Assembly: GCA_016840855.1 (NCBI GenBank)
Contig: JAEORO010000121.1
Span: 1 to 33,988 of the forward strand
DNA: 33,988 nt
Direction of reading: 5' to 3'
From: Candidatus Thorarchaeota archaeon
GTDB taxonomy: Archaea > Asgardarchaeota > Thorarchaeia > Thorarchaeales > Thorarchaeaceae
The notes beneath the pieces are model-generated. The model worked only from the letters and a program-made list of their open reading frames with translations. It was not told the origin of the DNA and ran no database searches. Positions 2,658 to 22,117 of the stretch are shown here, piece after piece. The stretch's first letter is position 1. Each line of letters begins with the position of its first letter. Position numbers and translations under genes: made by a program.

Positions 2658-2733
2658 ATCTCAAATCCGCCGCCTACTGATTCTACCCACTACTAATGGT
2701 GGTGTCGAGTCTTGAATCTTGCGTTTTCTCTTT

Positions 2734-3090
2734 CTAAGCTACAATCCTGACTGGCTTTAGGTTCACAACCTTGTGCTCATCCTCGATGCTGTCATACTCA
2801 ACCATGCCCACGAGCTCGCCCTCAGCACCAGGCTGCAGTTCGAACTCGATCTGCGCTATCGAAACGGTGTCTGGCTCTACTGTGCCAAGGTTCTGTGTCT
2901 TAATCTGATCAGTCAAATCAGGCACGCCAAGTATCACCTGCACATTGTGCATAGCATTCTTAGCTCCATTCCGTACAACCACGCCAAAGATGACTCGACC
3001 ATCACGGATCTTGTATTCAACTGCGATGTCCATACCCGGCTCAAGCCCCAGGCTCGCGGGCTCTGCTGTGGTCACAAACTCCTTTACCAT
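2734..3090 (-). CDS. Ig-like beta-sandwich protein (adaptin-ear/GAE- or CARDB-like); possibly the split-off cytoplasmic domain of the upstream giant protein
   Basis: Alternating beta-strand pattern VIFGVVVRNG...MHNVQVILGVP...LGTVEP...IEFELQP...GMVEY. In frame with 3094..9567 across a single TAG. Confidence 0.7.
   Translation of the reverse strand: MVKEFVTTAEPASLGLEPGMDIAVEYKIRDGRVIFGVVVRNGAKNAMHNVQVILGVPDLTDQIKTQNLGTVEPDTVSIAQIEFELQPGAEGELVGMVEYDSIEDEHKVVNLKPVRIVA
2741..2757 (-). repeat. Copy 1 of the 17-bp repeat, forming the last codons (KPVRIV) of the 118-aa ORF
   Basis: + strand acaatcctgactggctt. Confidence 0.85.
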
Positions 3091-3093
3091 CCG

Positions 3094-6000
3094 CTAGTCA
3101 CGGTAACGTTTCACTCCGACAGCTCCCACAAACGCAAGCGCAATGAGTCCGGCAACTGGGAATATCCAGTGAATGGTTGGTAGGAAGTCTTGGCCATCTG
3201 GTATGCCATCGCCATCGGTGTCTCTGTTGTTGGGATCAGTTCCCAGAACCACAACCTCTGTGTAGTCGTCGAGACCATCCCCATCACTATCTGCTTCTCT
3301 AGGATTAGTATGGTACGTGTGCACTTCTACTCCATCAATCAGGAGATCAAAATCGGTGTCGTTGTTCATCGGCTGAGTGAAGTATGCTGTCTTCTCTTGA
3401 TAGTCGTTAAGCCCATCTGAATCGCTATCTGAGATGGTAGGGTCAGAGTACGGGGTCTCGAAAAGCTCCCTATAGTCACTCAACCCATCAAAGTCCATAT
3501 CATCTTCTAGGGGGTCTGTAGCAATGCCTAGTGGGTTGATGCCCCAAACTTCATCATAGTCGCTGATGCGATCCTCGTCAGTATCCTCCTCAAGTGGATC
3601 TGTGTCATAGACCATCACCTCTTCGAAGTCACTGAGCCCATCAAAGTCACTATCCGGTAACAACGGATCTGTGTCATAGATCAGGTACTCCTCTCCGTCT
3701 GTCAACATGTCAAAATCAGTGTCAGAACCATTGATGTTCGTACCCAGTATAATTTCAAGTCCATCAATGAGGTCATCGTTATCAAAGTCTGGATCGTTAG
3801 GTAGAGTGTGCCAGACTCTCAACTCAACCCAGTTTGTGAGGCCATCTGAGTCACTATCCCAATCTCTATCAAGTGTACCAGGATGAGTCATGTTGGTCGT
3901 CGGGTCCGTTCCAGTCAGGATGACTTCTTCATAATCGCTCAACCAATCTGAATCAGTGTCATTGGAGTCTGGTAGTGTGTGCCATGTGTTTACCTCGGGA
4001 CCGTCCTCTAAACCATCTCCATCACTGTCTTTGTTGAGTGGGTTCGTTCCCCAGTCTTCAACCTCTTCATTATCATAGAGACCATCTCGGTCAGTGTCTC
4101 TGTTCCTCGGGTCTGTTCCATAGATCTTGCACTCTTCTCCATTTGATAGCGTGTCACCATCTTCATCATCATTGTAGTCTGAGATTCCGTTATCATTACT
4201 GTCAGGGTCTCTCGGGTCCGTCTTTGTCAGAACGCACTCCCAATAATTAGTGAGTAGGTCTCTATCCTCATCGTCAGCGCCATCGTTCTTGCCATCAGAG
4301 TCAGTGTCGAACATTCTTGGGTCTGTCTTGGTGAGTCGAATCTCCTGCTGGTTCGTTAGAAGGTCCCCATCTATGTCCCAGTCTGCATCTGATATGTTAT
4401 TGCCCTGAGTACTGTAGAGGGTTGGGTCTGTGTTGGTCATATTCACCTCTTCGAAATCTGTCAGTGAATCTTTGTCTGTATCACTAACTCGTGGATTTGT
4501 ATACACCCATCTGCTGCTCACTACACCACTGATATTGAAGGTCATGTAGAAGCCGTTTATCTCCTGTCCATCCAGAAGTTTGTCATTGTCTGTATCTTCT
4601 CGCAGAGGTGAAGTGTTGTAGATATTCAGCTCGGCTCCATCTCCGAGAGAGTCACCATCTGTGTCAAAGAGCAATGGATCTGTTTCGAAGACCTTGATTT
4701 CATCATAATCGGTAAGGTTGTCTGAATCTGTATCTGTATTATTCAGGAGAGTGTGCCATGTGAGCGCTTCTTCTGAGTCTTCTAGTCCATCATTATCGGT
4801 GTCCCTGTCATTGGGGTCACTTGACCAGTAGAATAGCTCGTCCCAGTCTCCGAGACCATCATCATCACTATCGAATTTGGTAGGTGATGTTTCCCAGACA
4901 AAGATTTCAGCATAATCACTGAGTAAGTCTAGGTCTGTGTCAACCATTGTACAGTTGGTTTCATAGAGATAGATCTCATCATAGTTGTTGAGTCCGTCTG
5001 CGTCTTGGTCATCTAGGTCATCAGGGATTGTGTCACCGTCTGTATCAAGCATAAGTGGATCTGTATGACTGTTGAACAGCTCGTCTGCATCAGCTATGTT
5101 ATCTGAATCAGTGTCATCATTGATTGGCGAGGTCTTGTAGATGTTCACCTCATCTCCATCACTAATGGTGTCAAAGTCTGTATCCCAGTTCTCCCAGTCA
5201 GTTCCATTCTCTAATTCCTCAGCATCATTTAATCCATCTTGATCTTTGTCGGCTTGAGTTGGATCCGTGTCATAGAGAATCCATTCCTCCCAGTCTGAGA
5301 GTGTATCTCCATCAGTATCATTTAGCAGTGGATCTGTTCCAATGTCTAATTCCAGTTTATCACTAAGGAGGTCGTCATCTGTGTCAATCGAGTTTGGGTT
5401 AGTCCCGTACGTGTTCCATTCATCACCATCGGACAACGTATCTCCATCACTGTCCCATGATGTTGGTGATGTTATTGAGAAGTATACCTCAAAGTAGTCA
5501 TCGAGTCCATCAGAATCGCTATCTGTGCCACTTGGGTCTGTGTGATAGATCCAGTACTCAACATAGTCACTTAGTTGGTCATTATCGCTATCTTGATCGG
5601 TAGGTGATGTGCCTGACACATACACCTCAAAACCATCTTTTAGCCCATCCAAATCGGTGTCCGGGGCTGTAACGTTTGAGTGGTAACCGTATATCTCCAA
5701 TGCGTTAGACAGACCGTCAGCATCATGGTCAAGTTGTCCATCAAGTGTGCCATTTCCATAAGTTGATGCCAGTAATGGGTTTGTTCCTAGAAGCTTTACC
5801 TCGACATAATCGTCCAGTTGATCTCCATCTGTGTCTTGTATGTTGATGTTAGTCCCATAGAACAACTCATCATCATCTCGAAGTCCATCACCATCACTAT
5901 CGCTCGAGAGCGGGTCAGAGAAGTAGACGAGAACCTCATACCCATCTCCAATATTGTCGTTGTCGCTATCAAAATCTCCGGGGTTTGTTTCGTAAACATC

Positions 6001-9000
6001 GATCTCATCGCCATTAGACAGTAAATCATTATCACTGTCAATCTGATAGTCTGTGTGTGTGGCATTGTACCACATGTTGTTCGGATTGGTGTGAGTAAGC
6101 TCGACTTCAACGTAATCTGAAAGTAGGTCTGAATCGGAGTCTGCCTTTAGAGGATTAGTACCATAGTCGTTCACTTCCTCTCCATCTAGGAGTTCATCTC
6201 CGTCAGTATCGTCCTTTAACGGGTTAGTGCCATAGAGGTACTCTTCACCATCTTCTAATCCATCAGAATCGCTGTCTGGCTCAAATGGCGAGGTTTCGCC
6301 TATATTTACAACGCCATTCGCATTGACATCCTCTCCGCGTTCTCCCAAGAGCGGTTCATAGATGCCATTGTGATTTGTGTCGTTCCAACCATCATACAAA
6401 CCGTCGTTATCACTATCTGGGTCTGTAGCATTAAGACCGACATCAATCTCCAGACCATCTCTAAGTCTATCTCCGTCTGTGTCCCAAAGGGTGACGTTGG
6501 TACCATAGGTCCTCAGTTCCTCAAGGTTCGTGAGACCGTCGTTATCTTGGTCATCCTGTCCATCGAGGATTCCGTCATCGTCGTCGTCGCTATCTGTGGG
6601 GTCAGTGTAGGTGTAGAGTACTTCTTCTCCATCAGTAAGCTGGTCTGAATCAGTATCAGCTGCTAGTGGGTCGCAGTCATTGAGGAACTCCTCTAAATTG
6701 TTCAGTTTGTCATTATCAGGGTCTTCCTCCCAGTCGTAAGTTCCGTTATCGTTCGTATCGTTATACAAGGGGTCAGTACCTGTCATCTCAACTTCGAACC
6801 AGTTGGGGAGGAGGTCCGCATCCTCATCGTCATTATAATCAGAGATGCCATTATCGTTACTGTCTGTATCATTGTAAATGGTATGTGTGATATACAGCTC
6901 TATCCCATTGCTAAGCCCATCGCCATCATCGTCCTCATCATAATCTGAAATACCATTATCGTTACTGTCCTCGTCGTTAGGATCGGTGCCCAGGATGGAA
7001 TATTCATCACCATCCTTAACATTGTCTCCATCAGTGTCTGGATTTCTGGGATGTGTGAATGTCACGTTCAACTCTTCAAAATTAGTTAGTCCATCGAGGT
7101 CGCTATCCTCGAGATCATCAGTAAGAGCTGATCCTCCAGAGTCTTTTAATGTAGGATTAGTCCGTGTCAAGTAAATCTCTTGATAGTTAGTAAGGGTATC
7201 ATTATCATAATCCCAGTTTCCATCCAATACTGTAGCGTTGAAAGTATGCGGATTTGTAGCATTCCAGAAGTACGGAGCACCTCTATACTTGACTTCATCT
7301 GGATCAAGAATCAAGTCAAAATCAGAGTCAACTAAAGTGGCGTTTGTTTTGTATGTAAAGACTTCCAAACCATCTCCCAGAGTATCTCCATCCGTATCAC
7401 TTTTCGTCACATTTGTGAAATAGACATAGCACTCCAAATAGTCATTCAGATTATCAAGGTCTGTGTCAGCAGAGTTCGGGTCAGAGCCCCAGTAATTGAC
7501 CTCGAGTCCATCTGTGATATTATCAAAATCTGTGTCATTATTTAGAGGGTCAGTGAAGTACGTGTTTACTTCTGCGCCATCATTCAAATCATCATCATCG
7601 CTATCGCTGTCTGACACACTAGTACCATACACGACATATTCGTCATAATCTGAAAGCCCGTCTCCATCTCCATCAGCTTTGAGAGGATTGGAGTGTACAA
7701 TCATGACTTCCTCATAATCAGTCAATGAGTCTCCGTCTGTGTCTTCATTGAGCGGCGAGGTCTTGCTGATTTTTACCTCATATCCATCGCTCAATAGGTC
7801 GTCATCGCTATCTGGGTCATAGACACCAGTTCCGAGCTGAATCTCTTTCCAGTTTGCGAGGTTGTCCCCATCCTGGTCATCATAGTAATCTGAAATACCG
7901 TTCCCATTTGTGTCCACATCATTAGGGTCTGTCTTAGTAATTCGCACCTCTTGGATATTAGTGAGCCCGTCCCCATCGTTATCATCCTGCGCGTCATTGA
8001 TATCATCAGAATCGCTGTCTGGGTCAGTTGGTAGAGTCAGGGTGACGTTGTTTTCCTCATAGTCTGTTAGTGAGTCCCCGTCTGTGTCTGCCTGATTCGG
8101 ATTGGTGCCAAGATATATCTCCTGCCAGTCTGTGAGTTTATCATTATCTGAGTCTTTTGCATTGGGGTTGGTTCCAAATGTAATGACCTCTGCGAAGTCA
8201 GATAGCTTGTCTCCATCTGAGTCCACCTTGAGAGGATTTGTACCATAGGTCAATACCTCTTGTCCATCATTCAGATTGTCGTTATCAGAATCGGGGTCGT
8301 TATACAACGTGCCCTCCATGACAATCTCACGCGCATCTGCAAGACCATCTTTGTCATAGTCTCGCCCGTACACGGAAACACCTCCTATGTTGGTGCCAAA
8401 TGCATACTCCTGACCTCCGAAATTGTCGAGGTCTCCAATGGCTAAAGCACCTGCGAACCCGTTTGCAGTGAGCTGATTGACTCTCCATCCTGTGGAGTTG
8501 TATATCGTTAGGGTGTTGGGTGTCCCAACAAGGACCTGTGCATTAGGCGGCGTATCTCCGATGTCGGGGAACCTTATATCATTGGGTTGCCCACCCATGG
8601 TCTTGTTCCATGCTAATACGCCAGAGGAAGAATATACCCTCAGTTGATTTGACGCAGTGCCCAGAGCAAATTCGTGCTCCCCACCCGCCACAAGATCTCC
8701 AACCCTGAGGGCAGAGATACTGCTACCAAGCTCGAGTTTGAACTCAAGACTCCCAGTGTCAGACCAGACATTGAGAGTACCATTAGTGTTCCCGTACAGC
8801 ATTTCCCAGTTCGATGTGAACGAGAGGTTTCCCATAGCAACGACCCTAATTGCTGTAGGACTCGTCTTCTCGAACACAATTGTGCCTGTGTCTTGTAAGA
8901 GAGTGAACCGCCTTCCATCAGAGGCCACTACAAACTCAGTTCGAGAGTCTGCGTCTATGTCCGCACCGGAAATCAATCGTACCTTGCCATTGCTCAGGTA

Positions 9001-9567
9001 GCTCCAGAGTGGAGTGGTGTTGATCTCGAAGGTGTAGACATAGAAGTCGTCACAGCCCACAACGACCTCCTCAAATCCGTCCCCATCGAGATGTCCGCCT
9101 GCAACAGCATAGACTGGCTCAGGAAGTGACATGTTCATTTGAACTGCCTTATCTGCTCCAATCACAACGATGCCATAGTCTGTACCTATGAGGATCTCCT
9201 GACCGGAAGCAGCAGTGCCATCGATAGCTGCAATTGCGTGTGGTGTCGAGCCAAGTCTCAGCTTCCACAAGAGTGTGCTATTGTCATCGAAGAGGTACAG
9301 TGTACCATTCTGGGTGACAACCGCAACCTCATCTCGCAGGTCTGCATCGAAGTTGTCAACAACAAGATCCACGACCTGATTTCCTGTCGTGGTCGACCAA
9401 ACAATGGCTGTGTTGAACGGTGCAATCTCTGCGAGTGAGTGCGGAACCTCTTGAGCCTGTGGGCTCGTGATTGTGACGGGCTGTAAGCCTGTATCTGTTG
9501 TCTGGATTTGTAGTCCTGCGAGTGCGCAGACAACCAGTAGGGCTATGATCACATGATAGGTCTTCAT
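3094..9567 (-). CDS. Giant cell-surface protein: signal peptide, FG-GAP/BBS2-like beta-propeller, long TSP3-type Ca-binding repeat array, C-terminal TM anchor
   Basis: N-terminal MKTYHVIIALLVVCALAG; blades with D-x-D-x-D-G-x-x-E-hydrophobic-G motifs; about 1700 aa of D(S/T)DxDGLxDxxE...TDP repeats; C-terminal WIFPVAGLIALAFVGAVGV-KRYR. GGAGG RBS and ATGA overlap with the upstream ATPase. Confidence 0.9.
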   Translation of the reverse strand: MKTYHVIIALLVVCALAGLQIQTTDTGLQPVTITSPQAQEVPHSLAEIAPFNTAIVWSTTTGNQVVDLVVDNFDADLRDEVAVVTQNGTLYLFDDNSTLLWKLRLGSTPHAIAAIDGTAASGQEILIGTDYGIVVIGADKAVQMNMSLPEPVYAVAGGHLDGDGFEEVVVGCDDFYVYTFEINTTPLWSYLSNGKVRLISGADIDADSRTEFVVASDGRRFTLLQDTGTIVFEKTSPTAIRVVAMGNLSFTSNWEMLYGNTNGTLNVWSDTGSLEFKLELGSSISALRVGDLVAGGEHEFALGTASNQLRVYSSSGVLAWNKTMGGQPNDIRFPDIGDTPPNAQVLVGTPNTLTIYNSTGWRVNQLTANGFAGALAIGDLDNFGGQEYAFGTNIGGVSVYGRDYDKDGLADAREIVMEGTLYNDPDSDNDNLNDGQEVLTYGTNPLKVDSDGDKLSDFAEVITFGTNPNAKDSDNDKLTDWQEIYLGTNPNQADTDGDSLTDYEENNVTLTLPTDPDSDSDDINDAQDDNDGDGLTNIQEVRITKTDPNDVDTNGNGISDYYDDQDGDNLANWKEIQLGTGVYDPDSDDDLLSDGYEVKISKTSPLNEDTDGDSLTDYEEVMIVHSNPLKADGDGDGLSDYDEYVVYGTSVSDSDSDDDDLNDGAEVNTYFTDPLNNDTDFDNITDGLEVNYWGSDPNSADTDLDNLNDYLECYVYFTNVTKSDTDGDTLGDGLEVFTYKTNATLVDSDFDLILDPDEVKYRGAPYFWNATNPHTFNATVLDGNWDYDNDTLTNYQEIYLTRTNPTLKDSGGSALTDDLEDSDLDGLTNFEELNVTFTHPRNPDTDGDNVKDGDEYSILGTDPNDEDSNDNGISDYDEDDDGDGLSNGIELYITHTIYNDTDSNDNGISDYNDDEDADLLPNWFEVEMTGTDPLYNDTNDNGTYDWEEDPDNDKLNNLEEFLNDCDPLAADTDSDQLTDGEEVLYTYTDPTDSDDDDDGILDGQDDQDNDGLTNLEELRTYGTNVTLWDTDGDRLRDGLEIDVGLNATDPDSDNDGLYDGWNDTNHNGIYEPLLGERGEDVNANGVVNIGETSPFEPDSDSDGLEDGEEYLYGTNPLKDDTDGDELLDGEEVNDYGTNPLKADSDSDLLSDYVEVELTHTNPNNMWYNATHTDYQIDSDNDLLSNGDEIDVYETNPGDFDSDNDNIGDGYEVLVYFSDPLSSDSDGDGLRDDDELFYGTNINIQDTDGDQLDDYVEVKLLGTNPLLASTYGNGTLDGQLDHDADGLSNALEIYGYHSNVTAPDTDLDGLKDGFEVYVSGTSPTDQDSDNDQLSDYVEYWIYHTDPSGTDSDSDGLDDYFEVYFSITSPTSWDSDGDTLSDGDEWNTYGTNPNSIDTDDDLLSDKLELDIGTDPLLNDTDGDTLSDWEEWILYDTDPTQADKDQDGLNDAEELENGTDWENWDTDFDTISDGDEVNIYKTSPINDDTDSDNIADADELFNSHTDPLMLDTDGDTIPDDLDDQDADGLNNYDEIYLYETNCTMVDTDLDLLSDYAEIFVWETSPTKFDSDDDGLGDWDELFYWSSDPNDRDTDNDGLEDSEEALTWHTLLNNTDTDSDNLTDYDEIKVFETDPLLFDTDGDSLGDGAELNIYNTSPLREDTDNDKLLDGQEINGFYMTFNISGVVSSRWVYTNPRVSDTDKDSLTDFEEVNMTNTDPTLYSTQGNNISDADWDIDGDLLTNQQEIRLTKTDPRMFDTDSDGKNDGADDEDRDLLTNYWECVLTKTDPRDPDSNDNGISDYNDDEDGDTLSNGEECKIYGTDPRNRDTDRDGLYDNEEVEDWGTNPLNKDSDGDGLEDGPEVNTWHTLPDSNDTDSDWLSDYEEVILTGTDPTTNMTHPGTLDRDWDSDSDGLTNWVELRVWHTLPNDPDFDNDDLIDGLEIILGTNINGSDTDFDMLTDGEEYLIYDTDPLLPDSDFDGLSDFEEVMVYDTDPLEEDTDEDRISDYDEVWGINPLGIATDPLEDDMDFDGLSDYRELFETPYSDPTISDSDSDGLNDYQEKTAYFTQPMNNDTDFDLLIDGVEVHTYHTNPREADSDGDGLDDYTEVVVLGTDPNNRDTDGDGIPDGQDFLPTIHWIFPVAGLIALAFVGAVGVKRYRD
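3180..8365 (-). repeat. Coding tandem array of bacterial-type thrombospondin type-3 (TSP3_bac-like) repeats
   Basis: Units of about 22-23 aa (DTDGDGLSDGEE...GTDPLN), roughly 70 by length estimate, diverged at DNA level. Confidence 0.9.
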
Positions 9568-10562
9568 GGTGTGGTTCCTCCTATTTCACCAGGATTGTGT
9601 TTCCAGGGTTTTACCTGGAAATAGTCAAAGAAGTCAGCCTCAACCAGACTGACCTCTTCAAATGGTAGTTTCATTTCGTTGAGTCTCTTGATGATTGGTA
9701 GGATTTGCTCATCTGGGTCATCGATGAAAAGCTTCATCGCATTCCTACCAGCTGGCGCAGTGTACTGAACTCCTGGCAATGCATTGATTCGCCTGATAAT
9801 CTCGGGTGTCATGGCATGCATTACAAGACGGATGCTCTCACCCCTACCCGGGAGTGTTGAGATTAGTTCCTGTGGTGTGCCAAACTGACTCACATCACCT
9901 TCCTCAAGAAGGCATACTCGTGTACAATAATCAACAATCTCAAGGTCATGGCTGATGATGACCATGGTCGTGCCCAGTTCATAATTAAGTTCTTTCAGGT
10001 AGTTAAGGGTTTCATGCCGCAGATGTGCGTCTAAACCTGTGGTGGGCTCGTCAAGTAATAGCACGGGAGGGTTGTGTATCATCCCAAGGCAGATGGACAC
10101 TCTCTTCCGTTCTCCACCCGACAATCTGTCCACTCTCTTTGTGATGAGCTCCTCATCGAATCCTAGGATGGTGAGGATGTTTCTGGCTCGCTTCTCAATC
10201 TCCTTAGGTCTTAAACCGAACATTCGACCGAAGAACTGGGCGTTCTGAAGTGGGTTAAAATCATAATAGAGGCTCAAATGTTCCAGCTGTGGTACATATC
10301 CTACAAGGAGGCTTATCAGTCGAGCCTTTTTCGTGACATCATATCCGCCAACGAATGCCTTTCCATCAGTTGGGCTTATTTGACCGGTAAGCACTCTCAG
10401 CACTGTCGTCTTGCCAGCTCCCGAGGCTCCTATGATTCCCAGAAACTCCCTCTTGTTTGCGAAAAACGATGCTCCTTTCAGAGCGAAGAAATTCCCAAAG
10501 GCTACTTTGAGGTCGATGATGTCAATCTCCCTGTGCGTTTCCTTGGCATCAGGTTTTCCCAC
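9564..10562 (-). CDS. ABC transporter ATP-binding protein (ABC-2/DrrA/GldA-like)
   Basis: Walker A GASGAGKT, Q-loop GYVPQ, signature LSGGE, Walker B LLLDEP, H-loop ISH; C-terminal accessory domain; GGAGG upstream. Confidence 0.95.
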   Translation of the reverse strand: MGKPDAKETHREIDIIDLKVAFGNFFALKGASFFANKREFLGIIGASGAGKTTVLRVLTGQISPTDGKAFVGGYDVTKKARLISLLVGYVPQLEHLSLYYDFNPLQNAQFFGRMFGLRPKEIEKRARNILTILGFDEELITKRVDRLSGGERKRVSICLGMIHNPPVLLLDEPTTGLDAHLRHETLNYLKELNYELGTTMVIISHDLEIVDYCTRVCLLEEGDVSQFGTPQELISTLPGRGESIRLVMHAMTPEIIRRINALPGVQYTAPAGRNAMKLFIDDPDEQILPIIKRLNEMKLPFEEVSLVEADFFDYFQVKPWKHNPGEIGGTTP

Positions 10563-10563
10563 A

Positions 10564-13500
10564 TCACACGCCTCCTACCTTGTCGCTCACGCGATCAAAC
10601 ATCTTGCGTCCTTCCTCAATGTCTTGCATGAGCACACGCAACGCCTCGATCTTCTGAATACGATCAAGGTCTTCTCTCTGTATGAGTTCTTCAAGCTGAG
10701 TGAATGCTGCCAGCAGTGCCATCAACGTGTTGTCAATCTCACGAACAAGATCAGTATCAATCTCCGGAATCCTGAGCCGCTTTCTCATCCTCCTACGGTT
10801 CCAAACTAAATAACCAATTAGTCCACCAAATATGCCAAGAGATGTCAATAGCGCAAACTCAGCCATGGTCAAGAATTGAGTTGTGGGTTCAGTGGGTGGA
10901 GTTGGTTCTAGTTCGTAGAGATAGAAACTTACACTCGCATATGTCATAGCGTATTTCTCATCACCCAAGATGAGGAATATGCCATTGATTTTTCCCTCCC
11001 TTCTCCAGTAACTTGGTGCAAATTGAGAGGAGTAGAGACCATCCTCCACAAAACCTGCAATAAAGAATGTAAGGCTTCCATTAGGTAGCTCATATGCAAT
11101 GGCAACGAACAAGTCATTTACAGGATTTCCATAGTAATCCTTCAAATTCAGATTTACATAGACACTTCGACCAGCTTCATAGTAGATTGTGTCCTCCGAG
11201 AGGCTTGTCGAAGTTGTAAGAGTGTTACGAAGCAAGAATTGATTCAGGTTATCGAGCAGTTTTCTGTTGTTGCACTTCACCAGATTCTTGTTCATGAATA
11301 TTTTAGATGATCCGAATATTGCGAGTTCTGGGTCAGTTGTATCTAGAACAATGACGCTGTTTCCATTGAGTCTGGCATTTGCTTGGGACTGGTTGTTCAT
11401 AATATAGGTGCCACCACCCAACCAGATGCAGTCCAGACCGAGACCCAGAGGTTTGGTTGTTACAATGTCAGTTGTGTTCTCTTCGTCATGACTTCCTGCA
11501 AGGAAATATCCATACTTTGTTAGCAACGGGTTGAGTATAGTCGTATTTGCATTATCATCATTATCGCCAAGAACGACGAGCGTGCCACCATTTTGGGAGA
11601 AGTCCCGTAAAATATCAATCTCTGTCTGATTGAACTCCTCAGTTGGCGCAATTATAAAGACAGTTGAGAAAGTCGTCAATAGACCTTCACTTAGCTCCAC
11701 TCCTGGAGTTTCGATGAGGTCCAGACCGACATCAGCCATTATTTTCTTCATATTTGAGAGACCTGAAAATGTAGTCATTCTGAAGGAGTCGAAGAGACTA
11801 GTGATTGATCCCAGGCTATCGAGATCATTCAAACTAAAGTCCATCCCCACAGAGCTATCATCTACGAAGTCTTCCTGAGCTAATGGAAAACCGAATCCAG
11901 TATCTCCGGTAAGATTTCCAGTGTCACCTAAGCCACCAATGTCTCCCATAAGCGACCCAAATCCACCTCCATGGGATGTATCAAGTAGCATCATCGCTCG
12001 TGGATATTTCAACACTCTTTCGAGTGTGATATTTGTACTCCATCCTAACTCAGTTTCAAGCACATAATCACACCTATGATACCCATCCATTCCAATTGGC
12101 GGAGCCATCAGAAACAGTGAGAAGTCATAGTATCCTTCGATTGTTTCAGCGCTTGTCAAGGACATGTTACCCCACTCTGTCGCATTCCCATAATTTGAGA
12201 TAGTGAGATTTCCTAATGATTCAGTGGTTGATAAGACAAAACTGTAAAGTCCAAAGTCTGCTGGGAATCGAATATCAAATGGGGCAAATGGTAGCTGCTT
12301 TGGAAATACTGATGTTGATGATATCGGAGTTATTATGAATACATCTCGCAGCAAAAAGTCGTCTAGGATTCCGACTCCTGCTGTAAGTAGTAGTTGCGTC
12401 GGATTAGAAACGAGATTCACAATTTGATCTAGTCCTGTGGAAACCGCCCAAGCTGCAGTTCTGATGCCCTCTGTTTCTGGTCGCCAATCTGTGACGAGCA
12501 CCTTTGCTTTGAATGGTTCTATCACATCATATGAGAAGTACTTTCCAAACATAGTTCCCTGATCTGCAGAACCCTCTACCACCAACATGGCTCCTATTGC
12601 TGTGGAATTCTCTTGTCCGATGTTCATAATTACAGCTCTCGATTGATATGTTTCACCTGCTTTAGCTATTCGTGGGACATCAGCTTCTACAACCATTAGG
12701 TCTCCTTGAGATAATGCCCCTGCAGGAATGCCATATTGCCACATGGCATTAATTGAAGCATCAAGAACTGTACGATTTTCTCCGAAGCCCATAGCTATCG
12801 TCACATTAACGAGCTCATCAGCGTCTAGAGTGCCAAAATCCCATTGCATTGCCAAACCAACGTCACCATCAAAAACAGTTGTTCCTGTCAGGTTATTATT
12901 TGACACGTGATTGGCAATATTGGAAGAGTTGCCAACTTCGAAGGCAGAAAGTGGAATACTTGAGTTCATTCCAACGTAAAAGTTGCCGTAACTCTCTGAA
13001 AGACCATATGCGAAAAGCTGCTGGTCATCAAGGTCATATTTACCATGATCTGCTTCACCATCAAGATAGAGGTCCATTGAATACGACACATACAGACTCA
13101 CATTCTCAACAGGGTCACTACCAAGATTGAGGATGAATGGAGTTATTCTGAATGCTGTTAAAGGCAGAGGTGAATAGAATGTGAGATTATATGACTCTAC
13201 CAATAATGTGACATAGATTGAGTCATTGAATGATAATACTCCTACATATCGGTTGTAAGGGACCGTGAGCGACTGTGAAACAACCTGGTGTAACTCTCTT
13301 TTGACATCAAACATCATCAGATTCATCGGGTCTTCGTTGTTCCATTTTAACGAGAACATTCCCATCATCAGGTGAATTCCTGAATCCTGAGGATTTCGTT
13401 GATCGAGGGCTACAAGAGTTGTTCCGAAACTGCTCATCAGCATCGTAGTTGATGCATCTGTTCCACTTGCAGTGACAAGTCCTAATGCAAGAAGAGGTAG

Positions 13501-14946
13501 ACTTGTAGTTCGCGTGTGTGGGTCTCCAGGTGTTTGCTGTGTACTTAGATAGTCGAATGCAGCTTGTAAATTGAGAAGCCCTGCTCCTCCATCATTTGCT
13601 CCATATCCGATTTGAGTCGCAGTATCTCTAAGTACATTCGCTAGGGTTATTGGAGTAGCTCTATCGAAAGCTTGTAGTAGGATTGCTACAGCTCCAGCGG
13701 TGATAGCAGCAGATGCTGCTGTTGTGTCTGCAATTGTATAGTTTTCATCTATAGTTTCACCAAGTGAACCTCCGAGTAATCCTCCGAGTCCTCCTAGGTC
13801 TCCAAGATCACCCAGCGATAGGTCGCCGAAACCAAGACTACTAAGACCAACTCCTGCTTTCGCTCCAACCACGCCAACTCCGGGAGCTACAAGATCTGGC
13901 TTTGTTAATAGTGAGAGAGAGGGGCCTCTCCCTGAGAAATCAGGAATCTCCTGATTTTCTGTGTCATATGCTCCCACGCAGAATGATGCGGCACTTCCTC
14001 CAGGTGACATTACTGTCAAATAGTCTGGTCCATCATCACCTGCTGCAGCTATTACGAGGATGCCCTTGTTGGCAGCAATCTCAATCGCCTCAGAAACCGC
14101 ATCATCAGGCGCACCAAGAGTATTGAATGGGAGCAAGATGATATCAGCGCCACGACTACTTGCCCAATCTATGCCTGACACAATCCAGCTAGGAGCAGCA
14201 AAGAGACCTCCCAAAGTCACCTTCGCAGAGAGCAGAGTCGCACCTGGAGCAATGCCTGCATACACTCCTCCTGACATGTTTCCCGTTCCTGCTGCAACCG
14301 AAGCCGCATATGTTCCATGTCCAACAAGGTCCAAGGGTAATGTGTCTGCCTCTACAAAGGATGCAAACGAAGAAACACTAAAGTCAGGATGGAGGGGGTC
14401 AACTCCAGTATCAAGAACTGCGATGACAGTACCAGTTCCATTATATCCTGCATCCCAAAGGTCTCTCGCTCCAATTCGGTCAATTAGGGGTACATAATCT
14501 TCTGAAGATGATGCCGAAGTCACAATATTTTGCGTTTGTTGAATAGCTGAAACCTCATTTGACCAAATTTTTGTGATGAATGACTCCTTAGCCAAGTCCA
14601 CGATAGAAGAACCTAACATCCTCACATGGAGCATCCCTATTGATTCAAAGGCTTCAATCAATTCCGCAGTTCGGTCTGCAAACAATATTGCATTCTTAGC
14701 TTTGAATGCTCCTACCTGTTCGTCATACCCCACAAGAACATCAGTATACTGGTTTAAGGAGGTCTGGTTGAGTAATGAATCATCAATCTTATCCATCGGT
14801 TCTACCAAATCTGGACTGATTGCAATAGCAGGTGGGAAAACTGATAGTCCACTGACTATAATGATACATACAAGAATGTATGCTACCACTTTCTGGGTCA
14901 GATGCACCATCGTATGTTTCAGTCCAGCCATCAAATCACTTCTCAA
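10564..14946 (-). CDS. Membrane-anchored S8 subtilase-like protein, probably catalytically inactive, with GIFT-like and Ig-like domains, TM and helical cytoplasmic tail
   Basis: IAVLDTG (Asp), GHGT (His), FSGRGP and KPDLVAPG are present, but GTSMA is replaced by TTAAS. Later come LLDTSH...FIIAPTEEF...EIDILRDFSQNGGTLVVLGD...LNPLL (GIFT/DUF4350-like) and the TM FALLTSLGIFGGLIGYLVW-NRRR. True start probably ATG 14931 or 14910. Confidence 0.85.
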   Translation of the reverse strand: MRSDLMAGLKHTMVHLTQKVVAYILVCIIIVSGLSVFPPAIAISPDLVEPMDKIDDSLLNQTSLNQYTDVLVGYDEQVGAFKAKNAILFADRTAELIEAFESIGMLHVRMLGSSIVDLAKESFITKIWSNEVSAIQQTQNIVTSASSSEDYVPLIDRIGARDLWDAGYNGTGTVIAVLDTGVDPLHPDFSVSSFASFVEADTLPLDLVGHGTYAASVAAGTGNMSGGVYAGIAPGATLLSAKVTLGGLFAAPSWIVSGIDWASSRGADIILLPFNTLGAPDDAVSEAIEIAANKGILVIAAAGDDGPDYLTVMSPGGSAASFCVGAYDTENQEIPDFSGRGPSLSLLTKPDLVAPGVGVVGAKAGVGLSSLGFGDLSLGDLGDLGGLGGLLGGSLGETIDENYTIADTTAASAAITAGAVAILLQAFDRATPITLANVLRDTATQIGYGANDGGAGLLNLQAAFDYLSTQQTPGDPHTRTTSLPLLALGLVTASGTDASTTMLMSSFGTTLVALDQRNPQDSGIHLMMGMFSLKWNNEDPMNLMMFDVKRELHQVVSQSLTVPYNRYVGVLSFNDSIYVTLLVESYNLTFYSPLPLTAFRITPFILNLGSDPVENVSLYVSYSMDLYLDGEADHGKYDLDDQQLFAYGLSESYGNFYVGMNSSIPLSAFEVGNSSNIANHVSNNNLTGTTVFDGDVGLAMQWDFGTLDADELVNVTIAMGFGENRTVLDASINAMWQYGIPAGALSQGDLMVVEADVPRIAKAGETYQSRAVIMNIGQENSTAIGAMLVVEGSADQGTMFGKYFSYDVIEPFKAKVLVTDWRPETEGIRTAAWAVSTGLDQIVNLVSNPTQLLLTAGVGILDDFLLRDVFIITPISSTSVFPKQLPFAPFDIRFPADFGLYSFVLSTTESLGNLTISNYGNATEWGNMSLTSAETIEGYYDFSLFLMAPPIGMDGYHRCDYVLETELGWSTNITLERVLKYPRAMMLLDTSHGGGFGSLMGDIGGLGDTGNLTGDTGFGFPLAQEDFVDDSSVGMDFSLNDLDSLGSITSLFDSFRMTTFSGLSNMKKIMADVGLDLIETPGVELSEGLLTTFSTVFIIAPTEEFNQTEIDILRDFSQNGGTLVVLGDNDDNANTTILNPLLTKYGYFLAGSHDEENTTDIVTTKPLGLGLDCIWLGGGTYIMNNQSQANARLNGNSVIVLDTTDPELAIFGSSKIFMNKNLVKCNNRKLLDNLNQFLLRNTLTTSTSLSEDTIYYEAGRSVYVNLNLKDYYGNPVNDLFVAIAYELPNGSLTFFIAGFVEDGLYSSQFAPSYWRREGKINGIFLILGDEKYAMTYASVSFYLYELEPTPPTEPTTQFLTMAEFALLTSLGIFGGLIGYLVWNRRRMRKRLRIPEIDTDLVREIDNTLMALLAAFTQLEELIQREDLDRIQKIEALRVLMQDIEEGRKMFDRVSDKVGGV

Positions 14947-16627
14947 TAGTACCTTGAATCAGACCTCGTGTGATCGCGACATAGTAGTCTACCATGTCTG
15001 CTACTGACTTTGTTTTAACAATCTTAACTGCGATATCCTGGTCTTTTAGAGCTATTACGCATCTCTCAGCAACCACTTCCAAAGGCTCATCCGTGAAGAT
15101 TTTCAGGAGTTCCCCACGCTGAAGCACGAAGCGAACTCCCTTTACAGTTTCTAGAGTTCTTCTTGCTCTCGGGTCAACCTCCTCCAGCACAATGCCAACA
15201 GCAAACCCTCTAGAGGGCATTGACTCCTTTAACGAGGCTGGGCTTCCGAATGCAACTAGGCTCTTACCTCGCATGAATACCGCTACCTTGTCGCAGAACT
15301 CTGCTTCAACAGGATAGTGTGTAATGACTATGATTGAAGTTCCATACTCCTGATTGATATACGAAAGATAACTCCAGAGCTCATTTCGATTATCTGGATC
15401 CAAACCTGATGTGGGTTCATCCATGAGAAGCACTTTGGGCTTATGTGCTAAGGCAATTGCAATAGAAACCCGTCTCTGCTGTCCACCACTTAGTTCTCGG
15501 GTAGCACTATTTCCCTTCTCTAGGACGCCAAAGTCTCTGAGAAGTGTCTTTCCTCTTTGAATGAGTTGCCATTCTGGAATGTCATACTGCTTTCCAAAGG
15601 CAATAATATTCTCGAGAGGTGTGAAGGTTTCGTACATGTACGAAAGGTCCTGAGGGCAGTATCCAAAGAAGTGTCTGACTTTCTGTGTCTGTCTTGAGTC
15701 AATACCCGCGATTCTCGCAACTCCAGTACTAGGAATGTCACCAATTAACGCCTTCACAGTTGTGGATTTCCCTGCACCAGACTCGCCAATGATGGCTAGC
15801 ATCTCCCCTTCTCGCATCGAGAATGAAACATTTTCAATGAGTTTCTTTCCACTCTTGATTGCCACAGTCAGGTTTCTTGCTGCAAGTACATCCCTATACT
15901 CGGGAGCTTGTTTCCAAGCAAAGGGCATTATGTAGACCTTGTTCGCCAGAACTGTGAGGTTTGGATTATAACTGGGTCCAATCAGAAGCTGCGGCTGTGC
16001 AACCATGTAGATTTTTGGATCTCCAACCTCTTCCTCCGGAGCAACTCTTACTTCAAGAGTCCCCTCTGGGAGAATAGGAGATGGTTTAGTTGTTGCACCG
16101 ACAATTGATCCTTTGATCATGATTAAGGTCTTATCAGACCCTCTTCGACCCCATACAGTGCACTCGACTTCTTGGCTCTTCATTTTTTCAAGATCTTTCA
16201 CTGCTTGCTGTAAATCTCGACCATCATAATACAAGTCATCCGCCATATTCCTTTTCAAGTAGTTCTGGACGGTGATTTGTGTCGCAGCTACATCATCCTG
16301 AGATGAGCTCTCTCCGCCCACTGTCAGAACTTTATCAAGCTCTCCTGCTCGTTGCCTTCGAAGATCTTCTTCAACATAGATGGCAATTCTTCGTGTGAGG
16401 ACACCTTTCTTGACTTTCAAGACTCGACCCTTGAACTTCACTTCTTTGCCTGTTGATGTCAGCTTTCCTTCGACCTCGCAGTGCAATTCGCGGGTCTGTC
16501 GAGTGATGCACCAATCAATGGCCTCACCTACTCGAGCTCCTGAGAAGTATGCTTCTTCAACAAAAGCAGGCTTTTCTTCTTCAGGCAAATCTCTACTATC
16601 TGTGTCGAGAATCATCTTCATAATCAC
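14936..16627 (-). CDS. ABC transporter ATP-binding protein with a ~240-aa N-terminal extension (two TrmB C-terminal-like subdomains)
   Basis: Walker A GESGAGKS, GYCPQ, LSGGQ, LLMDEP, ITH. The extension contains EVEGKLTSTGKEVKFKGRV...LTVGG...DDVAATQITV. True start may be ATG 16621 or 16615 after the GGTGA motif. Confidence 0.9.
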   Translation of the reverse strand: MIMKMILDTDSRDLPEEEKPAFVEEAYFSGARVGEAIDWCITRQTRELHCEVEGKLTSTGKEVKFKGRVLKVKKGVLTRRIAIYVEEDLRRQRAGELDKVLTVGGESSSQDDVAATQITVQNYLKRNMADDLYYDGRDLQQAVKDLEKMKSQEVECTVWGRRGSDKTLIMIKGSIVGATTKPSPILPEGTLEVRVAPEEEVGDPKIYMVAQPQLLIGPSYNPNLTVLANKVYIMPFAWKQAPEYRDVLAARNLTVAIKSGKKLIENVSFSMREGEMLAIIGESGAGKSTTVKALIGDIPSTGVARIAGIDSRQTQKVRHFFGYCPQDLSYMYETFTPLENIIAFGKQYDIPEWQLIQRGKTLLRDFGVLEKGNSATRELSGGQQRRVSIAIALAHKPKVLLMDEPTSGLDPDNRNELWSYLSYINQEYGTSIIVITHYPVEAEFCDKVAVFMRGKSLVAFGSPASLKESMPSRGFAVGIVLEEVDPRARRTLETVKGVRFVLQRGELLKIFTDEPLEVVAERCVIALKDQDIAVKIVKTKSVADMVDYYVAITRGLIQGTIEK

Positions 16628-17806
16628 CTAATCCAATGTTGGCTTCTTTGAGAATATGTAAGTAGCAACCAAAATCGCTACAACTGAGAATCCAAACAGA
16701 GTGAGAACTCTGTCAATAACCTCAATCAGGGATAGTCCTTTGAAAGCTGTGTCAATCAGAAGGTTAAGTCCTTGATTCATTGGCAAGATTGAATCTAATA
16801 TTCCTACATCAATGAAAAATCCTGAAAGAATCAGAGTAGCAAATAATACGAAGAGAAACATCTGATTCGCTTGTAATCTAGTACCTGCAACTGCTGAAAT
16901 TAATATCCCTGTGGCTGAACCTGTGAGTGAACTCAGGCTCATAATGATCACAAGAGAGATGAAACTTGTATTGAGATTAAGATCGAATGCTAGTACCCAC
17001 AAGGTAACCAATAGAAGTGACTGGAAGAAACCAATGATAACATATCCAAACACTTTAGCTACTATTACCTCCAGTCTACTAGTTGGTGTTAGAAGCATTC
17101 TTCGAAGTGGTGTATCACCTACGATTGATTGTGCTGATGTCATTGCAATCCCAAGATAGCTTGAAAAAATAACAATGAAACCTCCAAACACACTCTCTAG
17201 GTACCCCCCTTCTGGTGTGAACTCAATAGTCACGCCGGGAAACACCTCTGATCGAATCCAGAGTTTTGATGCTCTGAATAGGATAGTTCCTGCTTGCACA
17301 ATTCCTTGAATGGAAGCTGATCCCAGTAAATCGTTGCCATCATAATGCACTTCGATGTATGTTGGCTCATTTATTGTGAGGTTGGCTTCAAATCCGTCAG
17401 GAATAACGATGTATGCGTCAATTAATTGGTCGTACAGTGCTCTATATGCATCAGCTGTACTATTATAGAGTGTCACATTTGCCAATTCATCAAAGAAACC
17501 AGTCAAGTTCTCAGAAAGGTCATCTCCGTCATAAGTTCTAGTTGTATCTAAATCCACTACACCAAGCAAAATTCCACTTCCTGTAGTGGTTTCATTGTCG
17601 TCGCCACCACCACCTATACCTCCCCCTCCTCCAAGCCCCATACCCCCCATGCTACTGGACTCTGTCACATACCAGAGCATGCCAATAAGTGCAGCTGGGA
17701 GCATGAAAATCAGAAGCAGTGCAACTTTATCCTTTACTATTAATCGAAGTTCTTTCACTACCATATTTCTGATGCGTCGGGATGGTTTTGTGAGAACTTC
17801 TGCCAT
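16628..17806 (-). CDS. ABC-2 type transporter permease (YhhJ/GldF-like) with large extracellular loop
   Basis: N-terminal KELRLIVKDK plus TM1, extracellular loop (GVVDLD...YIVIPDGF), LRRMLLTP...VIVAK coupling region, five further TMs, LSGFF and LPM motifs. Confidence 0.9.
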   Translation of the reverse strand: MAEVLTKPSRRIRNMVVKELRLIVKDKVALLLIFMLPAALIGMLWYVTESSSMGGMGLGGGGGIGGGGDDNETTTGSGILLGVVDLDTTRTYDGDDLSENLTGFFDELANVTLYNSTADAYRALYDQLIDAYIVIPDGFEANLTINEPTYIEVHYDGNDLLGSASIQGIVQAGTILFRASKLWIRSEVFPGVTIEFTPEGGYLESVFGGFIVIFSSYLGIAMTSAQSIVGDTPLRRMLLTPTSRLEVIVAKVFGYVIIGFFQSLLLVTLWVLAFDLNLNTSFISLVIIMSLSSLTGSATGILISAVAGTRLQANQMFLFVLFATLILSGFFIDVGILDSILPMNQGLNLLIDTAFKGLSLIEVIDRVLTLFGFSVVAILVATYIFSKKPTLD

Positions 17807-18014
17807 TATGCTTCCCTCTTTTTTGTGGTGGCTCTAGAACCAACTCTGGTTTCTACAATTATACTTGACGAAGGCAACCTTTGGTTTAACTCTATTAAGG
17901 ATTTAGCACTTATCATCTAGCTCATGATTAGGGGCTTAAGTCGTTTTTTCGGTAGCTAACCTAGACATACAAATAAATGACGATGGCAGTAAATCTTTTG
18001 TATTATTATAAGAA

Positions 18015-20460: not shown

Positions 20461-21336
20461 TCATATATCGATACGTACTGGTGTCTGGTCATCATGCCAT
20501 TCCCAGACATCTAAAATGCATTTGGTGTCTTTTGGAATCCCCTTTAATTTAAAGCCTGCAAAGAGATACGCGCCGTCTATATACCTCCTGTCTTTTCCTT
20601 GAGGTAATTTCTTGAGAAATTCAATAGCGGCACTATCATACTCTCTTGCTACAATTATGGCTCTTGCTGGAAAATACGGTTGGACCAACATCTCATCCTT
20701 TCTCATGGTTAAGACAGCAAAATTGTCCAACGAGTCAATGAAGTCGATTATATGCGCCCTTCCAGCTCGTGTATCAATAACCTTGACAAAACTATAGTTC
20801 TCCCCAAAATGTCCCGCTGAGTCACTTCCGTTTGAGTCTTTTCTTCCAGCATCAATTAGTAAATCCACAGTGCCTTGAGAACCATCTTGCTTCATTAGAC
20901 TAGGTCTGATTGAAACTTTCCCATCATACTCATTTTGAATGAATTCTGAAACTCTAGTTATGAAGGGATTCTGGATTTTTCGAAGGTATTGGTCAGCAAC
21001 CTCTGTGAACTCGCTGTATAACGTTGTTGAAGCTTCTGAACTCAAACCACTCTCTTCAAACTGTCTTCCTAACTCATCTGCCAAGGAATAGGCTTGTTCG
21101 TATTCTTTTTTCTTAGGTGCAATGAGTGCAGTTACAATCTTGTCTCTAGGAGCTAAATAAATCACCTTTTCCTCAGTGGTGAAGGATGATAATCCTCCAA
21201 ATTTCATCTCTTTCGTGAAATGTGCAATAGCTGCTATGAAACTAGAAAATAACGAAGGGTCTGTCTTTGTCTTCATTCTGGAAAATAAAGGAACTCCTGC
21301 TGCTGCGTCGAATATGACTATTCCTTCAATATCCAC
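20461..21336 (-). CDS. Longin-like domain fused to a restriction-endonuclease-like fold
   Basis: N-terminal GIVIFDAAAGVPLFSR...DPSLFSSFIAAIAHFTKEM...LSSF is a typical Asgard longin pattern. The C-terminal VDLLID...FVKV...IIDF...RAIIVAREYDSAAIEF resembles an Mrr-type PD-(D/E)xK fold. Confidence 0.7.
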   Translation of the reverse strand: MDIEGIVIFDAAAGVPLFSRMKTKTDPSLFSSFIAAIAHFTKEMKFGGLSSFTTEEKVIYLAPRDKIVTALIAPKKKEYEQAYSLADELGRQFEESGLSSEASTTLYSEFTEVADQYLRKIQNPFITRVSEFIQNEYDGKVSIRPSLMKQDGSQGTVDLLIDAGRKDSNGSDSAGHFGENYSFVKVIDTRAGRAHIIDFIDSLDNFAVLTMRKDEMLVQPYFPARAIIVAREYDSAAIEFLKKLPQGKDRRYIDGAYLFAGFKLKGIPKDTKCILDVWEWHDDQTPVRIDI

Positions 21337-21403: not shown

Positions 21404-22117
21404 TTACGGTTCGGTCTCTGAAACAGGCGTGTACGGCATTGCTACAAGTGTTTTGAAGAGTCTCTGGTCATAGAATGGGGCTTGTCTGTTTAGGCATGCT
21501 ATTATGGTGCACCGAGAGCATACGAATTCCACTAATACTTTCATATCTGGATTATTGCCTACTGAAATCTCAAACAGTTTCTTTGATGGAACGAAGAAGG
21601 TGGTCTTCTTTTCACCGAGTGTACCGATGGCTGTGCTGTAAATGGTGTCGAGAAATCCTGGCTTTGTTCTCTGCGTTGCATGAAGGTTGGCCATCAAGAC
21701 CATGATAGTAGCAACAGAACAAGAGAGTGCATAGTTCTTAGGATCCCATGATTTCTCATATCCTTCTTCTATCACCCCTGTTTCCCACAAACGGAACATC
21801 TCGAGTCCTGGTTTTTTCTCGTGTTCTAATATGGACGTAACTATCTTTCCTCCTTCTTTTTTTGGACCTGCACGATAGGAAACACCCCGTGGAACATGTG
21901 AAGACCGTCCGCAGAAGCAATACCATCCACCCTGTCTAGCCTGTTTTCCAATCAATTGGAGAAGTGCTTGATTCTCATCCAGTGGTCGGTCAATCTCATG
22001 TGCTGGAACCCAGATTGTATGATCCTCACACCTTAGTTCTCCACAGAGTGCACATGGAAACACTACCTGATTGGTTCGAGAATATCCATATCGTATACAT
22101 TCTGCGCAGTTTGTCAT
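21404..22117 (-). CDS. Hypothetical protein with N-terminal AN1-like zinc finger and additional Cys motifs
   Basis: C-x2-C-x14-C-x2-C-x4-C-x2-H-x6-H, then CFC and CSRC-x4-C. Confidence 0.65.
   Translation of the reverse strand: MTNCAECIRYGYSRTNQVVFPCALCGELRCEDHTIWVPAHEIDRPLDENQALLQLIGKQARQGGWYCFCGRSSHVPRGVSYRAGPKKEGGKIVTSILEHEKKPGLEMFRLWETGVIEEGYEKSWDPKNYALSCSVATIMVLMANLHATQRTKPGFLDTIYSTAIGTLGEKKTTFFVPSKKLFEISVGNNPDMKVLVEFVCSRCTIIACLNRQAPFYDQRLFKTLVAMPYTPVSETEP

Follow-up and report, generated by a model that had tools for sequence, protein, structure and literature searches.

The window analysed here is the complete contig JAEORO010000121.1 (33,988 nucleotides, nt; our contig C58) of a Candidatus Thorarchaeota archaeon, whose assembly (GCA_016840855.1) comprises 3.36 Mb in 259 contigs. 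Between positions 17806 and 2734, its minus strand carries a tightly packed gene cluster encoding a type 2 ATP-binding cassette (ABC-2) permease, two ABC ATPases, a membrane protein that combines an apparently inactive subtilase (peptidase S8) domain with a GIFT domain (“S8-GIFT protein”) and a giant calcium-binding repeat protein (“giant”). A preliminary description, made from the sequence alone, had counted six closely spaced, co-oriented genes, and six open reading frames (ORFs) do lie at the positions it gave: 17806–16628 (permease, 392 amino acids, aa), 16627–14936 (long ATPase, 563 aa), 14946–10564 (S8-GIFT protein, 1460 aa), 10562–9564 (short ATPase, 332 aa), 9567–3094 (giant, 2157 aa) and 3090–2734 (118 aa). 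The junctions between them are, in this order, 0 nt, an 11-nt overlap, 1 nt, a 4-nt overlap and 3 nt; the 11-nt overlap turns into a gap of about 4–25 nt if the S8-GIFT protein is started at the ATG used by orthologues and databases (likely at position 14931 or 14910). The cluster consists of five genes and not six, because the 118-aa ORF is the cytoplasmic tail domain of the giant, severed by an in-frame TAG. The divergent intergenic region upstream of the permease gene (17807–18014), which contains a TATA-like AT-rich box and a GAGGG immediately 5′ of the permease ATG, is the presumed promoter region of the cluster. An Rfam scan of the window matched no family, and Tandem Repeats Finder reported no DNA-level tandem repeat in the cluster region.

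The domain content proposed in the preliminary description agrees with Pfam and NCBIfam matches. The permease matches Pfam ABC2_membrane_3 with 104.7 bits, compared to 35.3 bits for ABC2_membrane_2, and its only NCBIfam matches at E ≤ 0.01 are the RbbA and DrrB models. It is built of a first transmembrane (TM) helix, an extracellular domain of ~150 aa that opens with a Gly-rich stretch, and five further TM helices (hydropathy segments at residues 28–46 and 203–382). Both ATPases match ABC_tran (long ATPase 97.8 bits, short ATPase 90 bits), have a normal Walker A motif, signature, Walker B-Glu and H-loop as read in their translations, and find their best NCBIfam match in the DrrA subfamily (172.6 bits for the long ATPase, under the model cut-off, and 178.5 bits for the short one). 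With an ABC-2 permease and separate DrrA-like ATPases bearing canonical motifs, the three genes encode the parts of an ABC-2 transporter. In the long ATPase, the nucleotide-binding domain begins only at about residue 250 and is preceded by an N-terminal extension (residues 1–245, nt 15893–16627). This extension is an internal duplication of a module of ~100 residues (BLASTP E 6e-4) and resembles the end of the C-terminal, sugar-binding domain of TrmB (34.2 bits, cut-off 22.2); its sequence profile matched no solved structure in the PDB. Gly/Leu-rich low-complexity stretches of the GLGG type, conserved in orthologues, occur in the outer domain of the permease (residues 52–68) and twice in the S8-GIFT protein, as an insertion within the S8 domain (residues 365–395) and in the linker before the GIFT domain (residues 995–1050).

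The S8-GIFT protein begins with a signal or anchor segment and a propeptide-like region, followed by the S8 domain (nt 13507–14496), three beta domains (nt 11977–13506), a Gly-rich linker, the GIFT domain (nt 11224–11811), a beta-sandwich (nt 10912–11220), a TM helix (nt 10807–10872) and a helical tail (nt 10567–10794). Its hydrophobic segments (residues 20–38 and 1359–1377) lie near both ends, as do those of the giant, in agreement with the membrane topology first proposed for the two proteins. Peptidase_S8 (PF00082) matches residues 170–452 with 130 bits. When aligned to the Thermococcus subtilase Tk-SP (3afg), the domain retains the Asp of the DTG motif and the His of the HGT motif, but the oxyanion Asn is replaced by Asp (AAGDDGP) and the catalytic Ser by Ala. 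To survey these positions and the surroundings of the gene, 30 loci were fetched from 30 other genomes of ten Asgard families and searched with the window proteins. The oxyanion Asn is replaced by Asp in all 30 loci, the Ser position is occupied by Ala (16), Thr (4), Ser (4), Gly (3), Val (1), Leu (1) or Asp (1), and the catalytic His and Asp are lost in six and two loci, respectively. Fifteen database orthologues show a similar picture, with Ala, Thr and Ser at the Ser position in six, six and three sequences, His kept in 12 and Asp in 14. Judged by these residues the subtilase domain is catalytically dead, as the preliminary description had supposed; the databases name the protein “S8 family serine peptidase”, which it cannot be. 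The S8 domain is at the same time the best conserved part of the protein, with a mean pairwise identity of 72% compared to 61% for the GIFT domain, 59% for the cytoplasmic tail and 39% for the propeptide-like region. Such conservation despite a dead site suggests a pseudo-enzyme retained for binding rather than a decaying gene, and the subtilisin domain most likely now serves as a binding module. Single in-frame stops interrupt three otherwise full-length orthologues (G024:C106:7485–11861, TAG; G016:C6:3671–8056, TGA; G145:C72:5034–6011, TAG) and may be assembly errors, like the TAG in the window.

The GIFT domain is real. The Pfam model IFT52_GIFT matches residues 1052–1148 with 36 bits when the whole protein is searched and with 41.6 bits when the corresponding piece is searched alone, in both cases above the curated cut-off of 27.2 bits, and the DUF4350 and ABC_transp_aux matches of the window protein are sub-threshold. 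Across the 21 members of the profile, IFT52_GIFT was found in 20, ABC_transp_aux in 18, DUF4350 in 14 and MBTPS1_4th in five. A profile of the GIFT domain with its beta-sandwich, compared to the PDB, retrieved IFT52 (E 1.5e-14), site-1 protease (E 0.007) and Wbp1 (E 0.053). The fold was further assessed with an AlphaFold2 (AF2) model of residues 480–1365, computed from a 22-row alignment (mean pLDDT 79.3, pTM 0.53). In this model the GIFT region (about residues 984–1241) superimposes on IFT52 (5fms_A) with Z 22.7 and a root-mean-square deviation (rmsd) of 2.0 Å over 192 of 228 residues, so that profile and fold agree with the original assignment. Residues 480–746 form a beta super-sandwich of GH15/GH94 type, similar to what glucodextranase, glucoamylase and GH94 phosphorylases have at their N-termini (Z 21.7 and rmsd 3.3 Å over 237 residues of 1ug9). 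Beyond it follow two more beta-sandwiches, the disordered Gly-rich linker, the GIFT domain, a last beta-sandwich and the TM helix, after which the protein ends in a conserved, helix-prone cytoplasmic tail of ~80 residues. The source genome contains seven GIFT-profile matches in all. One of them is a stand-alone 364-aa ABC_transp_aux/GIFT protein (G000:C158, L070:1342–2436, minus strand; 43.7 bits, above the cut-off) with no ABC genes adjoining.

The giant, read as one gene at 2734–9567, is a type-I membrane protein interrupted by the TAG at 3094–3096. It is composed of a signal (nt 9496–9567), a beta-propeller-like head (about nt 8368–9450) with weak Pfam and PDB matches only, a region of TSP3 repeats (nt 3193–8361; TSP3_bac 145.8 bits), a TM helix (nt 3112–3168) and the cytoplasmic 118-aa domain (nt 2734–3090) that had been taken for a sixth gene; the hydrophobic segments lie at residues 6–24 and 2134–2152 of the 2157-aa ORF. 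The TSP3-type calcium-binding region spans ~1,700 aa and contains 54 DxDxD motifs and 18.9% Asp. The 118-aa ORF lies in the frame of the giant, and the TAG (3096–3094, ...KRYRD*RMVKEF...) is the sole separator of the two. In orthologous loci holding the junction, 13 of the window's family and order and two more of its genus, it is read through as a continuous ORF in 15 out of 15 cases. Of 14 longer homologues found in databases for the 118-aa piece, 12 have TSP3 repeats. In addition, contigs from four public sequencing runs were compared to the window over positions 2700–3500. The two runs that cover the TAG site come from two studies and both have G at position 3096, giving CAG on the coding strand, and each of the two covering contigs differs from the window by that one letter only over the compared stretch. 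The TAG in the assembly is an error or a rare variant; its reading as a recoded codon was set aside because near-identical contigs carry CAG. The cytoplasmic domain has a mean column identity of 75%, belongs to no Pfam or NCBIfam family and, as a profile searched against the PDB, gave chance-level matches only. In the corrected gene model, the giant spans the membrane and has a conserved domain on the cytoplasmic side, a build that suggests outside-in or inside-out coupling.

Nearly all homologues of the 1460-aa protein carry the name Thorarchaeota or Promethearchaeota archaeon, confirming the Asgard host that had been guessed from the sequence. A search with the C-terminal 886 residues among 1.84 billion cluster representatives yielded 61 relatives (E ≤ 0.001), and those with a name are all Asgard (Promethearchaeota, Helarchaeota, Lokiarchaeia, Ranarchaeia). 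The C-terminal part is present in 118 of 400 genomes of the phylum, concentrated in a few families: f1 (78 of 85 genomes), f2 (1/1), f12 (17/19), f7 (5/5), f21 (6/6), f22 (3/3), f24 (1/2), f9 (4/135), f26 (1/14) and f27 (1/4). Examples of negative families are f5 (0/31), f18 (0/22), f14 (0/12) and f20 (0/12). The profile of the long-ATPase extension is found in 135 of the 400 genomes and in the same families, and 116 of the 118 S8-GIFT-positive genomes have it as well; the two exceptions are G378, a genome of 81% completeness, and G160, in which the extension of the ATPase is a different one.

The genes are also physically linked. ABC genes, including the permease orthologue, adjoin the S8-GIFT gene in 24 of the 30 loci (f1, f2, f12, f21, f24 and f9) despite varied gene orders, which bears out the co-localisation in related genomes on which the preliminary description depended. 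In all 14 loci of f1 and f2, which make up the order of the window, permease, long ATPase, S8-GIFT protein, short ATPase and giant follow each other as in the window, the giant being full length in 13 of them. The four loci of f12 have the first four genes in the same order without the giant, so that f1, f2 and f12 all have the S8-GIFT gene flanked by the two ATPase genes. In the two loci of f21 the three ABC genes are divergent from the S8-GIFT gene, and other linked arrangements occur in f24 (one locus) and f9 (three loci, with two permeases and one long ATPase). One further locus each from f26 and f27 has ABC genes adjoining a more divergent S8-GIFT gene (2/2). In f7 and f22, whose S8-GIFT genes are unlinked, the long ATPase, permease and short ATPase are clustered elsewhere in the genome in all of the five further loci examined (5/5). 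The conserved core of the cluster is the permease, the long ATPase, the S8-GIFT protein with its dead site and the short ATPase. Because four other families keep the ABC and S8-GIFT genes together without it, the giant is not a general client of the machine; the previously proposed link between the two stands for f1 and f2 and fails in those four families. In one f12 locus (L032, genome G035), the place that the giant occupies in the window, directly after the short ATPase, is taken by a Ras-family small GTPase (7848–8372, minus strand; 162.9 bits), and an aminotransferase likewise follows there.

On the other side of the intergenic region, the window encodes a divergent 786-aa protein (18015–20375, plus strand) that has no Pfam, NCBIfam or PDB match. 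Its position beside the permease gene is kept in nine f1 loci according to tblastn matches (L036, L037, L038, L040 and L041–L045), making it a conserved neighbour within family f1 and at most a candidate member of the system. Further out lie a 291-aa protein (20461–21336, minus strand) with a weak longin-domain match (Fuz_longin_1, 20.3 bits, below the cut-off) and a 237-aa protein of no family (21404–22117, minus strand), both of which may be Asgard trafficking-type proteins. The more distant neighbours at 25077–28016 (minus strand), 22230–23825 (plus strand) and 31527–32333 (minus strand) include a GH38 alpha-mannosidase, an SdhA/FrdA-type flavoprotein and a glycerophosphodiester phosphodiesterase.

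The explanation that we favour, with moderate confidence, is a five-gene operon for an ABC-2 transporter with a dedicated, non-catalytic S8-GIFT outer subunit in Thorarchaeota-type Asgard archaea. A permease dimer together with one long and one short ATPase would form a heteromeric ABC-2 transporter, to which the bitopic S8-GIFT surface protein would be added as a dedicated outer accessory subunit. The ATPases would power either the export of a surface precursor of glycan or lipid type or conformational work across the membrane, and the S8-GIFT protein would receive or transmit their output on the outer side. In the long ATPase, the tandem TrmB-C-like extension may act as a cytoplasmic regulatory or docking module. 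The combination of sugar-enzyme-type sandwiches, a non-catalytic peptide-binding cleft and a GIFT domain points to the handling of a surface polymer or glycoprotein; the GIFT domain in the IFT-B, OST and S1P-SPRING complexes we read as a scaffold. The giant is a lineage-specific addition and, in the window's order, a candidate client or partner: it would be co-transcribed with the other genes and is probably a surface structure served or anchored by the machine.

Several observations weigh against this explanation. In f7 and f22, which account for six of the 30 loci, no ABC gene lies near the S8-GIFT gene. The giant is absent from the cluster outside f1 and f2, and in one f1 locus (L042) it is just 818 aa long and without the tail domain. 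Four of the 30 loci retain Ser at the catalytic position, and residual activity is possible in some lineages. Related genomes are not independent, so that the co-occurrence counts overstate the support and should be read as a pattern and not as a statistical test. Finally, the bacterial analogue GldG is not known to have an established mechanism, and the analogy thus predicts little.

Among the alternatives is a signalling or sensing device, which we consider unlikely. Here the S8/GIFT ectodomain would bind an external ligand or the giant, and the ABC module would transduce the signal to or from the cytoplasm through the tail and the ATPase extension, much like flux-sensing or mechanotransmitting ABC systems. 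The conservation of both cytoplasmic parts, the S8-GIFT tail (59% mean pairwise identity) and the giant's domain (75% mean column identity), speaks for such a device. So does the ATPase extension, which 116 of the 118 genomes with the S8-GIFT protein possess and which is similar to the C-terminal domain by which the sugar sensor TrmB binds its ligand. However, the cluster has no conserved gene for a regulator, kinase or DNA-binding protein, and ABC-2 permeases of ABC2_membrane_3 are generally annotated as exporters. That the genes are chance neighbours, namely an efflux pump of the generic DrrAB type next to a surface protein that has nothing to do with it, appears improbable to us: the DrrA subfamily is the best NCBIfam match of both ATPases and the S8-GIFT gene is unlinked in six of 30 loci, but the linkage persists through rearranged orders in eight families, the phyletic distributions of the unusual ATPase extension and the S8-GIFT protein are nearly identical, and the S8-GIFT gene sits between the ATPase genes in f1, f2 and f12. 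A still active subtilase, using Thr or another nucleophile to process the giant or other surface proteins while the ABC module exports the product in the manner of LanP/LanFEG, is very improbable. Asp and His are retained in most sequences, Thr or Ser occupies the Ser position in eight of 30 loci and the window has a radical SAM gene close by; against this, the position is Ala, Gly, Val, Leu or Asp in the other 22 loci, the oxyanion Asn is Asp throughout, the radical SAM gene is present in only two of the 30 loci searched (L037 and L040), and no conserved precursor peptide or modification enzyme was seen. A lantibiotic-type reading, or more generally one as a ribosomally synthesised and post-translationally modified peptide (RiPP) system, suggested by the nearby radical SAM gene, was likewise rejected because this gene is not conserved with the cluster.

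The cluster could also be an adhesion or motility apparatus, with a GldAFG-like ABC/GIFT module and the giant as a CglD-like substratum adhesin, to which we attach little probability. The preliminary description had called the system GldAFG-like. GldA/GldF/GldG of gliding Bacteroidota and the widespread “ABC-type uncharacterized transport system” with an ABC_transp_aux (PF09822) protein likewise combine an ABC-2 permease and ATPase with a bitopic outer protein of the GIFT superfamily. The S8-GIFT protein has hydrophobic segments near both of its ends. ABC_transp_aux, the GldG family, is found at E ≤ 0.01 in the 18 of 21 members mentioned above, five of them above the cut-off of 34.7 bits (L033 44.3, L051 39.9, L057 39.7, L054 36.9 and L055 35.2), the window protein itself scoring 25.2–28 bits. 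However, the GldA equivalog model TIGR03522 gives only 100.7 bits for the long and 127.2 bits for the short ATPase (cut-off 402.6), and at E ≤ 0.01 NCBIfam provides no GldF match to the permease (provided that it includes a GldF model) and no GldG match. The cluster differs further in its ABC2_membrane_3 permease, in its two unlike ATPases, one with the 245-aa TrmB-C-like extension, in an auxiliary protein of ~1,460 aa with a dead subtilase and extra beta domains, and in its Asgard host. Its likeness to GldAFG is one of layout, and the curated models do not make it a member of that system. GldG-type ABC systems occur in non-gliding organisms, too. With CglD of Myxococcus xanthus (NF033765), described in 10.1101/2023.10.19.562135 as an integrin-like gliding adhesin, the giant shares a long run of bacterial TSP3 calcium-binding repeats in a surface protein, and it reaches 372.5 bits on the CglD model. 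This score remains under the cut-off of 400 and is made up of 14 stretches that all lie in the repeat region, and whereas CglD is a lipoprotein, the giant has the type-I TM topology, its head is propeller-like and it possesses a cytoplasmic domain. Four of the six ABC-linked families lack the giant in their cluster, and no other gliding genes were seen in the window.

The cluster is large and tightly packed, and its conservation extends across several Asgard classes. We found no description of it or of an Asgard S8-GIFT protein in the papers searched, though the supplementary tables of PMC10307638 and 10.64898/2026.10.28.762692 may list such proteins. As a protein that keeps the S8 fold without a working site, the S8-GIFT protein can be compared to CspC/CspA of Clostridioides difficile and to PCSK9, non-cutting S8 proteins that act by binding. 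There is no specific relationship, though: architecture, location and partners are different, and the NCBIfam models CspC_non_triad and CspBA give weak matches far below their cut-offs. The eukaryotic GIFT proteins share other parts. IFT52 has the GIFT fold (Z 22.7) and no S8 domain. OST48 has the GIFT domain, a beta-sandwich and a single C-terminal TM helix (Z 18.8 over 282 residues, rmsd 13.8 Å); OST48/Wbp1 differs in having no S8 domain, and OST48_N matched one of the 21 profile members, below the cut-off. The passages of PMC10307638 that deal with Asgard WBP1/OST48 homologues report them from Heimdallarchaeia only.

The domain order is that of site-1 protease (MBTPS1/S1P/SKI-1; PDB 8UW8 and 9CSD), in which signal, pro-region, S8 domain, beta-sandwich, GIFT domain, TM helix and short tail follow each other as in the S8-GIFT protein. 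That site-1 protease has a GIFT domain, as stated in the preliminary description, is confirmed by the part of PMC11231238 on its structure, which places a P-like subdomain at residues 479–616 and a GIFT subdomain at 617–998. The sandwich and GIFT domain of our model superimpose on residues 480–874 of S1P with Z 18.4 over 308 residues and rmsd 6.8 Å. The differences are the loss of the catalytic Ser and oxyanion Asn, two extra domains of ~390 aa in total inserted between the S8 domain and the P-like sandwich, and the encoding in an ABC operon. In sequence, the S8 domain is nearer to Tk-SP and the subtilisins, and the 60 best PDB hits obtained with the whole protein do not include S1P. MBTPS1_4th has no match to the window protein at E ≤ 1, and of its five matches at E ≤ 0.01 among the 21 members one is above the cut-off (40.1 bits, cut-off 27).

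The source genome also encodes a paralogue of 983 aa (G000:C257, L074:6205–9156, plus strand) in which the Asp/His/Ser triad and the oxyanion Asn are intact (AAGNSGP, GTSAS). The paralogue also has a GIFT domain, a TM helix and, in the cytoplasm, a basic tail, and in size and build it corresponds to eukaryotic site-1 protease. It scores 21.8 bits on MBTPS1_4th, under the cut-off, and its family is centred on Thorarchaeota. Next to the paralogue gene, in convergent orientation, is a second S8 gene (1064 aa). The Asgard S8/P-like/GIFT/TM/tail build, comprising the dead ABC-linked form and the intact paralogue, might be the stock from which eukaryotic site-1 protease descended, a proposal that we regard as speculative and rather unlikely. 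If it were true, eukaryotic GIFT membrane proteins would have begun as outer subunits of archaeal ABC-2 transporters. The cluster ties an ABC-2 transporter to a domain whose other known occurrences are in bacterial GldG and in eukaryotic IFT52, OST48 and site-1 protease; it provides a concrete, testable prokaryotic setting for the GIFT domain and is of interest both for the cell-surface biology of Asgard archaea and for the history of this domain.

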